A stretch of 64,000 nucleotides of DNA from Methanothermococcus sp. Ax23 (lineage in GTDB: Archaea > AGJL01 > Methanococci > Methanococcales > Methanococcaceae). The notes beneath the pieces were generated by a model. The model searched no databases, was not told the origin of the DNA, and saw only the letters and a list, made by a program, of their open reading frames with translations. The position numbers and the translations under genes were made by a program. The stretch covers positions 992,001 to 1,056,000 of the forward strand of contig NZ_CP157522.1 in assembly GCF_049075655.1 (NCBI RefSeq). The letters are read 5' to 3'. This document shows positions 643 through 14,362 of this stretch, one piece after another; position 1 is the stretch's first letter; each line of letters begins with the position of its first letter.

Positions 643-1700
643 TTGGAGCTCCTAAACTTAAACTCTCTGGGAAAATTGGAAAAGGCAGAATTCATAAAAA
701 GAGTAAATAGGTTTTTGGGTAAAATAGTAATAAATGGGCAGGAAAAAAGTTGCTATATTGCAGATACTGGTCGTCTTGAAGAAATACTAACAGAAGGTAG
801 GGAAATATTGGTGGTAAAGAATAGAGAAGGGCTAAAAACGGATTATACATTAATTACTGTAAAAATGGGGAATGAACTGGTTTTAGTAAATACATCCCTA
901 CACTCATCAATTGCATACAATGCCATAAAACAGGGTGTTCTTGGTTTCGTGCCAAAAACTATAAAAAAAGAGGTTAAATATAAAAATAGCCGTTTTGATT
1001 TTTTATTAGACAGTAAAACATTTGTGGAGTTAAAAGGCTGCAATCTTCTGACCTACTCCAACGAGTGAACTCGTTGGGTTCTCGCTTACGGTAGTAAGCG
1101 AGCAACGAAATCACGAAGTGATTTCGTCTAATTTTAGCAGGGTTTAACCCTACATGGGTGGCCAAGCCCACTACCCCTATCCCCGTTTAGGAGATTCAGG
1201 GCTACGCTGTATCACTAAGATTACTCTATCAAAACAAACCACGATACCAACCACTACCAGCGGTAGAGTTTTCACTAACCCTACCCATTAGAACTTGGAC
1301 TGGTAGCGTTACTTACTATTAATCTTCTCATATTTATATTTTACTACTTACTAGCCGATATAATGTCCGCCTCTCATCCAACGATTAAAATCGTTGGCTT
1401 TCTCGGCGGTTTATCGTAAAGGGCGGCATTTGCCTTTTCCCAAATGCTCCAACAGTTAGGGGAACAAAACACTTAAAAGAGTTAATTTTAGCTAAAAAAG
1501 AAGGTTATAATTCTATAATACTGATTATGGCAGTTAGGGACTGCAAATATTTTCTCCCAAATTCAAAAATGGATAAAGAATTTGCAGACACATTCTACCG
1601 AGCTCTGAAAAATGGAGTGGAATTTAAAGCTTTTAAAATTAGGATAGATGAAAATGGTAAAAAGGTATATCTATCATCTAACTTAAATCTCAAAGTATAA
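643..1700 (+). pseudogene. sfsA: Sugar fermentation stimulation protein SfsA, interrupted by a 368-bp IS200/IS605-type element
   Basis: RVNRF, DTGRL, SRFDFLL, VELKGCNL (643-1047) join in frame to VKGGICLFPNAPTVRGTKHLKEL...TAA (1416-1700) once 1048-1415 is removed. Confidence 0.92.
1048..1415 (-). mobile_element. Non-autonomous IS200/IS605-family element (family A, copy 1)
   Basis: Near-identical to 59230-59603; subterminal hairpins CCAACGAG..CTCGTTGG and CCAACGATT..AATCGTTGG; no TSD; abuts TTTAC on minus strand; right end ...GGTCAG. Confidence 0.88.
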
Positions 1701-6667: not shown

Positions 6668-7423
6668 TTAATAGGATTTAATGGATATGTCATATTTTGC
6701 ATTAACACTAATGGACTTTAAAATATCTTCTGTTCGTTTTCTTATTGAATCCATATTTATTTTCTTTTTGAGAACTCCAAGGGTTCTTTTTGGAATTAAA
6801 ATTACATTACATCTGTAATGATATATTCCATTTTCATACTCCACTTCAACATTTAATGCATAATCGTGAATCATATCCTGCTCTTTTAGTATGTCAAATA
6901 AATTACATGATAGCTCATCAATGGCAGTTTTTTCCATGGTTCTGAGCTCCAATTTATCAGGTTCAAATGTTTTGCTTATAAGATTATCAATATATTCATC
7001 ATCAGGTAATTTGATGCCAAGTTTTTTTAGGAGCTCATCTCTTTCAGGGTTTCCACCACATCCTTCATCCTCACCTTTGAGATTTTTGGAAGATTTATTC
7101 CCTTCCCCAAATCCGTAGTCAATAACTGGGTAGACAAATATTTTTCCATCCCCGTAATTTCCCGTTTTTGCACTATTGGTTATTGTAGATATTATGTCTT
7201 CCAAATGTTCCTCATCAGTTATTAGCTCCATTTTTGTTTTTGTTTTTTGAACATCCATTACAAATGTATGTCCCCTATATTCCCTAACAACTTTTTCGCC
7301 AACTTCACGCCTTCTGCCTTTAACATCTGAAATAAGAATATCGTCCTTATGTCCAAATTTTGCAAGTGCGGCGATTACATCGGCTGTTTTCTCTGGTCGC
7401 AATACTGCTTCCACCAAATACAC
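6668..7423 (-). CDS. Divergent PII (GlnB/GlnK-like) domain fused to a ~140-aa C-terminal domain
   Basis: [13 protein letters not shown]-loop, [13 protein letters not shown]-loop; start reassigned to GTG at 7423 after GGTGAT RBS. Confidence 0.8.
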
Positions 7424-7473
7424 AATATCACCTAATGTAATCAATATACACACTATTATATCTCAATCAAATC

Positions 7474-12346: not shown

Positions 12347-13074
12347 AATTTCGCCTCCACAAATGATTTAACAAATTCCTCCATATTTTTTGCCTTCATA
12401 AAGCTTGTTCCTATAAGTGCCGCATCGGCATACTTTAAAGCTATTCTTAAATCATCTATCGAGCCAATACCGCTTTCACTAACAAATACTACATCCTTTG
12501 GAATTAAATTGGATAGTTGTTCCGTAAGGGATACTGTTCCATCGTCGAGCTCTAACTTTGTAATATCTCTATTATTAACACCAATCATTGTGGTGTTTGT
12601 ATCCTTTGCTATGTCAATTTCCTCCTTATTATGAACTTCCACAAGAGTATCCAATCCATGTTCAAGGGCATAATCAACGAATTCGGCTGTTTCATCCTTT
12701 AACATTCTCGCTATTATTAATATCGCCCCTCCCTCTGCTTCTGCTGTTTTTTCAATCTCATCTTTTGTGGTGATGAAATCCTTTCTTAAAACCGGGAGCT
12801 CGGTTGATGCACATATTTTTTTGAACATGTCAAAGTTCCCGTTAAAGTATTTTTTAGCGGTAATGTAGGATATTCCCGCAGCTCCTGCATTTTCATATAT
12901 TCTAAGAATATCTATTTCATCCCTTCCTTTAAGCATATCGCCATATTTTGGAGAATGGACTTTTATTTCTGCTATTATTGGATTTCTGCACTTGTGCGGA
13001 AATTCACAAATCTCTGATTTGGGTAAATTTTTGCTATTATTTTTTGTGTTTATTATTGAATTGACCATCTTCAT
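12343..13074 (-). CDS. trpC: Indole-3-glycerol phosphate synthase (with 15-aa hairpin-derived insertion)
   Basis: IIAEIK..SP, LRKDF, LVEVH, GVNNR, VSESGI. Confidence 0.95.
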   Translation of the reverse strand: MKMVNSIINTKNNSKNLPKSEICEFPHKCRNPIIAEIKVHSPKYGDMLKGRDEIDILRIYENAGAAGISYITAKKYFNGNFDMFKKICASTELPVLRKDFITTKDEIEKTAEAEGGAILIIARMLKDETAEFVDYALEHGLDTLVEVHNKEEIDIAKDTNTTMIGVNNRDITKLELDDGTVSLTEQLSNLIPKDVVFVSESGIGSIDDLRIALKYADAALIGTSFMKAKNMEEFVKSFVEAKL

Positions 13075-13225
13075 GATATCACCAGTTAATAGTTATGCTT
13101 ATATTAATATAATCATTAAATTAAATATATAAGTTAATAATTATAGGGGCTATTATGGCAAATAACCACATATTTGATAACATTTGAAAAGCATTTAATA
13201 TTTACACTAACAACTATTTAAAAAA

Positions 13226-13324
13226 TCACCACCATCTCCAAACAACATTGGAGTGGTTGCTAAAAAAAGAATCCATTTTATATATGTTCGAGATTTTCGT
13301 TCTCTTTATGTTGGATAATTCCAT
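13226..13324 (-). CDS. Putative trp operon leader peptide MELSNIKRTKISNIYKMDSFFSNHSNVVWRWW (32 aa)
   Basis: AAGGTG RBS 5 nt before ATG at 13324; ends TGG AGA TGG TGG TGA followed by T6; same strand as and ~150 bp upstream of trpC. Confidence 0.78.
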   Translation of the reverse strand: MELSNIKRTKISNIYKMDSFFSNHSNVVWRWW

Positions 13325-13373
13325 ATTTGCACCTTATTGGAAAATTATAATTAAAAAATATAATTTTATAGTA

Positions 13374-13387
13374 TATATAATTTTTTG
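13374..13387 (-). promoter_or_regulatory. BRE/TATA promoter for trp leader
   Basis: Minus strand CAAAAAA-TTATATA about 50 nt upstream of the leader ATG. Confidence 0.55.
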
Positions 13388-13451
13388 ATATCTTATGTCA
13401 AATTAATATTATTTAATCTAGTTAATCTATTTATTTAATCTATTGTGCCTT

Positions 13452-14126
13452 TTAAATATATTTTTCCATAGAAGTATCCCAATACTGTGTGTGGATATAA
13501 TATAATAACATCCCAAATATCCAAATGGCTACTGGAATTAATATAACAGTCATGGCAAATATAAATGCCACAATATATAATATTATCTCCAATATCACCA
13601 CTACAATAGTTAGTATAATATTGAATATTAAAATATCAAGCCATGTTTTTTTCAATATGTCAAATATGGTTCTAAATTCAAATATTGACGATAATTTACC
13701 TGTATTGGCATAATGAGATAATGCAATTGGAGTGATTAATGCAAATATTATAAGACATAATATATAAAAAATCAAAAATAATATAAAAATCAACATCATC
13801 ATAACGCCAAGTCCGGCTGTTCTATCATCAAGGATTAATAAAAAACCTCCTCCTAAAAATACATACCCAATTATCAGTATGATAATCGGAATTATGGCAT
13901 ATATTAAGATAATCACTATCCCAATAATTCCCCCAATAAACTGATTAACAATATTAAATTCAGGTAATTTGTTTTCAAATCCGCCGGAAACAAGTTTTAT
14001 TATATCTATCATATATCCATATAATGCCAAATTGAGAATTGGTATTGCCCCAATTATTCCACCAATGGCAAGTTTCTTTTTCCAATTTTCATCATTGAAC
14101 AAATATTTAAATGATTCAGATATCAT
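13452..14126 (-). CDS. DUF4013-type membrane protein (possible frameshift near C-terminus)
   Basis: ESFKY..NWKKKLAIGG, GY...IIK, LPEF, multiple TM segments. Confidence 0.7.
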   Translation of the reverse strand: MISESFKYLFNDENWKKKLAIGGIIGAIPILNLALYGYMIDIIKLVSGGFENKLPEFNIVNQFIGGIIGIVIILIYAIIPIIILIIGYVFLGGGFLLILDDRTAGLGVMMMLIFILFLIFYILCLIIFALITPIALSHYANTGKLSSIFEFRTIFDILKKTWLDILIFNIILTIVVVILEIILYIVAFIFAMTVILIPVAIWIFGMLLYYIHTQYWDTSMEKYI

Positions 14127-14362
14127 TGTACCCCTCCAACTTTTTTAAGAGCTCATCTGCAATACTCAAAAACACAGGAAGTATATAAAACACTCCGACA
14201 AAACCTGCAATAAGTCCCGTAATCAATCGCAATTCATTAAAGCTTTCCCTTAATCCTATCAGTTGAGTAGTTCCATCAATTCCCATAGGTATCAATGCCA
14301 TAATTAAATACCATTTGTTGGGTGTTTTAAAGTCATTTAGTTTTTTTACTGTCAAATTTCAT
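14116..14362 (-). pseudogene. DUF2085-type membrane protein remnant
   Basis: PMGIDGTTQLIGLRES.NELRL.TG C-terminal half only; the RBS-linked ATG at 14362 is out of frame with it and stops after 9 codons. Confidence 0.65.

Follow-up and report, generated by a model that had tools for sequence, protein, structure and literature searches.

A conserved Trp-codon leader ahead of the trp operon in Methanothermococcus: a candidate archaeal attenuator

How might an archaeon match the transcription of its tryptophan (Trp) biosynthesis genes to the supply of charged tRNA-Trp? The question is raised by a stretch of 64 000 nucleotides (nt) from Methanothermococcus sp. Ax23 (positions 992001–1056000 of a 1.67 Mb genome, 32% G+C; the whole stretch is called the window, and positions are counted within it unless another place is named), in which a 32-codon open reading frame (ORF) ending in closely spaced Trp codons lies directly upstream of trpC on the minus strand. 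A preliminary description of the window had proposed that this ORF encodes the leader peptide of an attenuator. From the sequence comparisons reported here the element looks like an archaeal version of the bacterial ribosome-read attenuators, and it is probably the gene of a translated leader peptide, by which the supply of charged tRNA-Trp is sensed and transcription read-through into the operon trpCDEGFB-x-A is adjusted.

The leader ORF and its occurrence before trpC

The leader region comprises the following features.

13386–13371, minus strand: putative leader promoter AAAAAATTATATATAC, resembling a B recognition element (BRE) and TATA box
13335–13330, minus strand: Shine–Dalgarno (SD) sequence AAGGTG, 5 nt ahead of the leader ATG
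13324–13226, minus strand: leader ORF of 32 codons plus TGA, translated as MELSNIKRTKISNIYKMDSFFSNHSNVVWRWW
13268–13262, minus strand: U7 tract in the leader ORF (codons S19-F20-F21), a candidate pause or checkpoint site
13258–13231, minus strand: hairpin H1, with 5' arm AACCACUCCAA (13258–13248), loop UGUUGU and 3' arm UUGGAGAUGGU (13241–13231)
13240–13229, minus strand: TGG AGA TGG TGG (W29, R30, W31 and W32), the candidate regulatory codons
13225–13220, minus strand: U6 tract, its first base right after the TGA, a candidate terminator or aCPSF1 recognition tract
13213–13205, minus strand: post-stop motif TTGTTAGTG, conserved among the aligned relatives
13190–13187, minus strand: second, shorter U tract (U4), 35 nt past the leader stop
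13135–13121, minus strand: AT block AACTTATATATTTAA with a TATA-like core at 13132–13125, a possible separate trpC promoter or operator

The elements on which the preliminary description had built its proposal (BRE/TATA, AAGGTG, the 32-codon ORF with its TGG AGA TGG TGG end, the U6 and the U7 inside the ORF) are all present on the minus strand, at canonical spacings. The TATA core of the leader promoter lies about 50–56 nt ahead of the leader ATG, with a predicted 5' untranslated region of about 25 nt, and the Trp codons occupy 13240–13238, 13234–13232 and 13231–13229, with the TGA at 13228–13226 (minus strand). As in trpL-type leaders, a short ORF with its own translation start stands directly upstream of a Trp biosynthesis operon; an AT-rich spacer of 151 nt separates it from trpC, and GGTGAT precedes the trpC ATG at 13074.

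Such an ORF is rare in this genome. Its 1.67 Mb contain, over all six frames, 18 958 ATG-initiated ORFs of 10–60 residues; at least two Trp stand among the last six residues in 80 of them and at least three in four. Besides the leader, these four comprise three ORFs that lie inside or overlap long ORFs, leaving the leader as the only intergenic one. Trp accounts for 0.68% of a proteome proxy, versus three of the 32 residues of the leader. The position of the U-tract is also uncommon: of the 845 genes of the genome that have noncoding DNA downstream, only 26 are followed by a tract of at least T6 whose start is no more than 5 nt from the stop codon. Leaders of other amino acids were sought in a rough scan of 3063 intergenic small ORFs, 238 of which carry an SD-like motif. 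Runs of a single residue occur in 50 ORFs, and among these only the trp leader precedes a matching biosynthetic operon; because K, N, I, F, L, Y, S and E are too frequent, the scan disregarded them, and Leu, Ile and Phe leaders would escape it. A blastn-short search of the same genome for further copies of the leader returned only AT-rich matches of 15–27 nt, and a search of 40 Methanococcales genomes with the covariance model R1 gave matches only in the five genomes used to build it; there is therefore one copy per genome, always before trpC. A 20-codon out-of-frame ORF inside a chorismate synthase-like gene (genome positions 1300401–1300463, plus strand) ends in WKWWH, resembling the QWWH ending of some relatives described below; it lies within a coding region and is probably a chance occurrence.

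In the order Methanococcales, trpC is present in 40 of 40 genomes, and the 450 nt upstream of each trpC were scanned for same-strand ORFs with at least two Trp at 30 loci, leaving out genome G038 and nine genomes of family f2. A leader-like ORF whose 3' end holds two or more Trp codons precedes trpC at 12 of these 30 loci, all in Methanococcaceae: four of 13 in Methanothermococcus, seven of seven in Methanococcus and one in a sister genus. The alignment bears out the preliminary proposal in that the ribosome-binding site (RBS), the frame and the C-terminal Trp codons are kept before trpC at these 12 of the 22 Methanococcaceae loci and on one metagenome contig (L173). The leader peptides end as follows.

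Own genome, Methanothermococcus: NVVWRWW
L002, Methanothermococcus: NVAWRW
L004, Methanothermococcus: NVAWRWW
L005, Methanothermococcus: NVSWRWCGFL
L003, sister genus: KWGWCF
L009–L011 and L018–L021, Methanococcus: VVLFQWWQ or VVLFQWWH

A W-x-W is present in all five Methanothermococcus-type sequences and in L003, and a WW at all seven Methanococcus loci; the clustering of sensed codons expected of a trpL-type leader, here two or more Trp towards the 3' end, is found in 13 of 13 leader-bearing sequences. The contig L173, on which trpC is 98% identical, carries the leader MKIVSVVYDMQRIKTSNIYKMDSFFSNHSNVVWRWW, identical in its 3' half and different in its N-terminal half; it alone is related among the at least 119 stretches returned by a metagenome pattern scan, nearly all of which are chance matches. 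ORFs with two or more Trp in L013, L014, L016, L017 and L026 lie in the upstream coding gene in a different frame, or are equal to that gene, and were not counted, nor was a second candidate in L004, an overlapping TTG-initiated ORF. At the eight loci of the other family and the one of a fourth genus, trpC is preceded by an unrelated gene or no such ORF is found.

The signals around the ORF are conserved with it. An SD sequence precedes the leader start as GGTG at ten of the 12 loci and as AGTG in L005 and L003; in L019–L021 the GGTG lies within an extended ORF, 7 nt ahead of an internal ATG. Most leaders also have a TATA-like box 50–80 nt upstream; in L004, L005, L009–L011, L019 and L021 its distance is similar to that in the window. 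In L001, L002, L004 and L173 the post-stop T5–T7 tract begins 0–3 nt past the stop; in L005 and L003 it overlaps the end of the ORF. Six of six sequences (alignment A7) keep the U6–U7 tract inside the ORF at 27 nt ahead of the first Trp codon, among them L003, where it encodes different amino acids. Upstream of the leader of L003 (genome G037, 1100–1345, plus strand) stand tandem copies of a GC-richer unit of about 50 nt, cggagtgagcgaagcgaacgaagagcaacgaa, which lengthen the open frame to 82 codons and seemingly replace the usual promoter; these units may be an inserted repeat element.

Several features point to translation, and the leader ORF is real, conserved and very probably translated. 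Over the last 30 codons the leader frame contains no stop in 13 of 13 sequences, whereas the other two frames contain 46 and 33, a count that carries some selection bias since the sequences were found as ORFs. In the alignments, differences in leader length preserve the frame, with one exception, a shift after WRW in L005. The ratio of nonsynonymous to synonymous polymorphism (pN/pS) is mostly 0.1–0.5 within the own clade, on small numbers and with RNA constraint also acting on the 3' half of the ORF. The counterpart in M. maripaludis is annotated as a hypothetical protein in several genomes (e.g. MMJJ_18460). The only invariant coding feature is the presence of two or three Trp codons among the last four; the N-terminal half is free in both sequence and length.

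RNA structure at the leader end in two genera

The pairing over the Trp codons that the preliminary description had postulated is the best conserved structure of the window's clade. The hairpin H1, formed by CCACUCCAA and UUGGAGAUGG, has a predicted energy of −13.9 kcal/mol at 37 °C (z = −2.73; one of 200 shuffles was as good) and still −5.65 kcal/mol at 65 °C, and it is the only structure predicted by RNAalifold for this clade. Over its ten pairs in five sequences 48 of 50 cells are paired (96%), versus 32–50% in slid controls; two pairs are altered on both sides, both in L003, and three by wobble. The 3' arm takes in W29, W31 and the first base of W32, and U6 begins 5 nt after H1. A predicted terminator, hairpin plus U-run, is placed, as in trpL-type leaders, between the leader codons and the first structural gene, and H1 and U6 together look like an archaeal terminator set exactly at the ORF end.

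The alternative pairings fared less well. The mutually exclusive hairpin of AGCAAC with the GUUGUU inside the ORF, suggested in the preliminary description, appears not to be conserved (77.8% of cells paired), and of the further suggestion that UAGCAAC pairs with a GUUGUUA downstream of U6 it can be said that the pairing is kept in 88.1% of cells, although less well than H1. A cmscan of 12900–13600 against Rfam at E ≤ 10 found no Trp_leader (RF00513), its six weak matches belonging to five unrelated families and none coming near the gathering score. A long A–U hairpin between U6 and downstream A-runs, which appears in the single-sequence fold, was rejected: at 55 °C the fold is reduced and worth only −0.88 kcal/mol, at 65 °C nothing of it is left, and L002 does not keep its base, GGUGAU/GUUAUC. 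The end of the leader ORF, UGGUGGUGAU (13236–13226, minus strand), matches the SD sequences of the leader (AAGGUG) and of trpC (GGUGAU) well, and might conceivably act in ribosome pausing or re-initiation; in Methanococcus an anti-SD-like AUCAC is the pairing partner of the Trp codons (GUGGUGG).

The second genus was recognized as Methanococcus because the peptide of L010 exactly matches M. maripaludis hypothetical proteins. Its leader stands at the same site, before the orthologous trpC, with a TATA box and a GGTG RBS of its own. It is about 31 codons long, its 3'-terminal Trp codons lie within a hairpin, and about 95 nt past the stop an AT block is conserved. It ends in QWWQ or QWWH, whereas that of the window ends in WRWW, and the Trp codons find their pairing partner past the stop in Methanococcus but upstream of themselves in the window's clade. 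No U-tract stands at the Methanococcus stop, where the first tract of T4 or longer comes at +46 in three of the seven loci and between +11 and +61 in the rest. In addition, Methanococcus has two further covarying helices. In helix 1:2 the Trp codons pair with sequence just past the stop (11 pairs, 100% paired); this post-stop sequence can instead pair with a third segment in helix 2:3, which is 97.6% paired with one compensatory pair; and helix 3:4, a further hairpin that the third segment overlaps, is 100% paired with two compensatory pairs and is followed by a U4–U5 tract. The three helices of this predicted chain exclude one another and are laid out as in bacterial attenuators.

The best match of R1 in Methanococcus has an E value of 0.9. 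The motifs TTTGTTAGTG and TTTGTTAGCG, similar to TTGTTAGTG, occur 12–20 nt past the Methanococcus stop, a resemblance without statistical support for homology, and the short motifs common to both clades (TTGTTAGTG, the ATATAT block and TKIS..MD.F) are anecdotal. The two versions are positional and architectural counterparts, for which common descent is plausible.

Proposed mechanism and alternative explanations

Because nothing else in the ORF is invariant, the position of the ribosome at the Trp codons must be the signal. When Trp is ample, the ribosome would reach the stop and leave, H1 would refold and U6 would lie bare; aCPSF1/FttA would act on U6 while the polymerase, slowed on the U-rich spacer, crosses the 151 nt, and the transcript would end before trpC. 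When Trp is scarce, a ribosome parked on W29–W32 (on W31 or W32 for the cover of U6) would keep H1 melted and hide U6, and the polymerase would reach trpC. The U7 tract inside the ORF could serve as a polymerase pause that lets the first ribosome catch up, and the decision would be made after the U-tract has emerged from the polymerase.

The factor that this scheme needs is encoded in the genome (aCPSF1, TIGR03675, 973.5 bits versus a cut-off of 580.2). The predicted factor site, U6, abuts the leader stop, and this arrangement is conserved. According to excerpts of Yue et al. (2020), aCPSF1 of M. maripaludis recognizes U-rich tracts on nascent RNA, cleaves downstream and is needed for termination, U-tracts are proposed to slow the polymerase and so to buy time for aCPSF1, and M. 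maripaludis has terminators with two consecutive U-tracts (PMC7515710). As to the preliminary idea that a ribosome stalled on the Trp codons would cover the adjacent U-tract, the geometry fits, since a ribosome at W31 or W32, with a footprint of about 12–13 nt 3' of the A site, would cover U6, and the factor is present; the masking itself we infer. It would amount, if true, to a Rho-like attenuation logic run by a CPSF73 homologue. More tentatively, and with clearly less confidence than in the leader itself, we consider the possibility that the locus represents an archaeal ribosome-mediated attenuation without an antiterminator, in which the Trp codons lie in the terminator hairpin and a starved ribosome hides the aCPSF1/FttA signal, and that sister genera use two RNA architectures for it.

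Several observations weigh against the sensing of tRNA-Trp by this leader. In E. coli expressome structures the active site of the polymerase and the ribosomal P site are about 34 nt apart. By this spacing, when the polymerase is at the end of U6 the A site of a coupled ribosome would still be three to four codons before W29; a purely intrinsic decision at U6 cannot sense Trp because the coupled ribosome is not yet on the Trp codons, and with such a decision ruled out by spacing a later one is favoured. A stall on the first Trp codon would leave most of U6 exposed, which is a weakness of the model. The element is missing from nine of the 13 genomes of the same genus: in six (L012–L017) trpC adjoins the upstream gene directly, and in three (L006–L008) an intergenic region is present before trpC and the leader-like ORF is absent from it. 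In the window's clade RNAalifold finds no conserved pair in the 151-nt spacer and no antiterminator, and the retention of the two alternative pairings given above is moderate. Searches with nhmmer profiles in both directions at E ≤ 10 found no sequence similarity between the Methanothermococcus and Methanococcus versions. In the four runs compared, out of nine retrieved, contigs from RNA libraries (12700–12848, 12700–12774 and 12936–12985) all lie in trpC and none over the leader; the only runs that reach the leader have no library type on record, are probably of genomic DNA and are uninformative on expression. Finally, the TATA-like core of the AT block lies 51–58 nt before the trpC ATG, a normal promoter distance.

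A caveat of the preliminary description, that a second TATA-like motif could drive trpC independently, is strengthened: the block, with its core at 13132–13125, is conserved across genera, with the consensus (C/A)(T/A)ATATAT(T/C)T(A/G)A in the window and in L002, L004, L005, L009–L011 and L018–L021. The AT block may be a second trpC promoter, an operator or a part of the attenuator. If it is a second promoter, the leader modulates only read-through from the upstream promoter or is an independent gene. It is accordingly conceivable, though unlikely, that the ORF is an independent gene whose product is a small RNA or a small, Trp-rich peptide and which has a separate promoter and an H1/U6 terminator, while trpC is transcribed from the AT block, perhaps under a DNA-binding regulator, and the leader has no effect in cis. 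The core of the AT block is as far from the trpC ATG as the leader TATA is from its own ATG, and the block is kept in both genera without RNA structure conserved by RNAalifold, as expected of a DNA signal; H1 with U6 resembles a complete terminator, the peptide may be under some constraint, as the pN/pS of less than 1 hints, and the M. maripaludis ORF is annotated as a protein. On the other side, the Trp codons beside the stop are the sole invariant coding feature in an ORF with a variable N-terminal half, and the ORF occurs only before trpC, in three genera and nowhere else. The AT block is spaced with respect to the leader, 89–124 nt past its stop at 11 loci but 54–163 nt ahead of the trpC ATG; L003 has lost the TATA core of the block, and the AT-rich intergenic DNA here is full of TATA-like 8-mers, at about one per 150 nt. 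The histogram of TATA positions is too flat to bear on a second promoter.

A classical attenuation of the bacterial type, with alternative hairpins and intrinsic termination without a protein factor, would be well served by the Methanococcus helices 1:2, 2:3 and 3:4 followed by U5 (97.6–100% paired, with compensatory changes) and by the UAGCAAC/GUUGUUA pairing of the window, 88.1% of which is kept; yet for the leader studied here it is improbable. The window's clade conserves H1 alone, with no pairs in the spacer and 77.8% for the alternative inside the ORF; the H1/U6 unit contains the Trp codons themselves, so that a separate antiterminator is not evident; by the geometry considered above the polymerase would be past U6 before a coupled ribosome is at W29; and archaeal termination is reported, in excerpts of Yue et al. 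(2020), to be independent of hairpins (PMC7515710). Control after transcription, in which translation of the leader or stalling on it alters the stability of the mRNA or the translation of trpC (by freeing its RBS or by blocking RNase entry) with termination unchanged, seems marginally less probable still. A ribosome parked beside the U-rich, unstructured spacer could shield it from 5'–3' or endonucleolytic decay, and the ORF end UGGUGGUGAU resembles the local SD sequences, but no structure is conserved in the spacer, and sequestration of the trpC RBS by the leader was rejected, the predicted partners of that site differing in 12 of 12 full-length leader-to-trpC folds with none of them consistently the leader. 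That the ORF is a functionless product of chance in AT-rich intergenic DNA is very improbable: short ORFs are abundant here, as the census of 18 958 shows, but this is the sole intergenic one ending in at least three Trp, and conservation across genera extends to its RBS, frame, Trp codons, hairpin and U-tract. A translated leader that senses charged tRNA-Trp thus remains the explanation that we prefer.

Genomic setting, known systems and significance

All genes of the operon, which runs from 13074 to 5859 with trpC first, lie on the same strand, and their identities come from NCBIfam and Pfam matches above curated cut-offs.

13074–12343, minus strand: trpC
12346–11318, minus strand: trpD
11299–9938, minus strand: trpE
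9907–9320, minus strand: trpG
9309–8680, minus strand: trpF
8643–7474, minus strand: trpB
7453–6668, minus strand: ORF with P-II and DUF2226 domains (x)
6626–5859, minus strand: trpA

Upstream of the leader stand genes for a DUF4013 membrane protein and a DUF2085 membrane protein (13452–14126 and 14116–14355, both minus strand); because these are unrelated to Trp synthesis, the leader promoter opens a new unit. The 261-residue ORF between trpB and trpA (6668–7453, minus strand) consists of an N-terminal P-II domain (PF00543, 46.8 bits) fused to DUF2226. It is full-length only in the own genome and in G026, where it also lies about 5.4 kb downstream of trpC, and a degraded copy with many stops is found near the trp operon of G033; from its domains, the protein could be a ligand-sensing regulator of Trp synthesis. 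In a contig scan for relatives with broad patterns, of which the best 80 of 589 relatives were kept, TrpC from Archaeoglobus and Archaeoglobaceae contigs of metagenome-assembled genomes (L032 and L033) is 64–65% identical to that of Methanothermococcus, whereas TrpC of Methanocaldococcaceae is about 40–44% identical, a similarity that suggests lateral transfer of trp genes.

Among known systems the closest parallel is the E. coli trp leader, trpL (RF00513), of 14 codons. Both have a short leader ORF with its own RBS before a Trp operon, clustered Trp codons at its end within a hairpin and then a U-run; in both, as proposed here for the archaeal one, the position of the ribosome would report charged tRNA-Trp, and the Methanococcus relatives share the trpL-like chain of helices 1:2, 2:3 and 3:4. 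The differences are that the archaeal host uses a eukaryote-like polymerase and lacks Rho, that the terminator-like hairpin of the window's clade includes the Trp codons, only 3 nt away from the U-tract, with no conserved antiterminator, that the bacterial timing does not fit, that the archaeal leader, at 32 codons, is twice as long, and that a second promoter possibly follows it. A different parallel is offered by E. coli tnaC, where leader-peptide attenuation works with Rho and the ribosome is arrested by free Trp acting on the nascent peptide. In both cases a ribosome arrested at the leader end would mask an adjacent site of a termination factor; the factor proposed here would be the CPSF73-type nuclease aCPSF1/FttA, acting on U-tracts, and not the helicase Rho, and the arrest would come from missing Trp-tRNA and not from free Trp. 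Translated upstream ORFs of mycobacteria are associated with Rho, according to parts of a recent review (PMC13675443).

The repressor TrpY resembles the proposed leader in giving Trp-responsive control of a methanogen trp operon, but it is a DNA-binding protein that acts at TRP boxes of the promoter, whereas the feature of the window is an ORF with RNA signals. No TGTACA, which we take to be the TRP box sequence, occurs in 12900–13600 on either strand, as the preliminary description had noticed. TrpY controls the trpEGCFBAD operon of Methanothermobacter, and the paper that describes it, a 2019 study of trp regulation in archaea, says that apart from this repressor little is known (PMC6737238). 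In M. jannaschii promoters, upstream ORFs are described, in the part of the paper that concerns them, as being at chance level and essentially without an RBS (PMC2699501). A term search of the 2026 cross-domain review of termination gave no word starting with 'attenuat' (PMC13675443), and the main text of the M. maripaludis termination papers, including PMC7515710, makes no mention of trp or a leader; their supplements may list ends at the orthologous site. In the full-text literature searched, no archaeal trp leader or ribosome-mediated attenuator was found.

In conclusion, this study describes a conserved and very probably translated small ORF before the trp operon of Methanothermococcus, with Trp codons inside a terminator-like hairpin that abuts a U-tract. 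Leader-peptide attenuation is the textbook case of transcription–translation coupling used as regulation, and to our knowledge it has been described for bacteria only. If the proposed reading is true, archaeal transcription–translation coupling would be exploited for gene control, and the locus would offer a simple and genetically tractable site, with a counterpart in M. maripaludis, at which the competition of the ribosome with aCPSF1/FttA on nascent RNA takes place, as well as a natural Trp-responsive switch for the engineering of methanogens.

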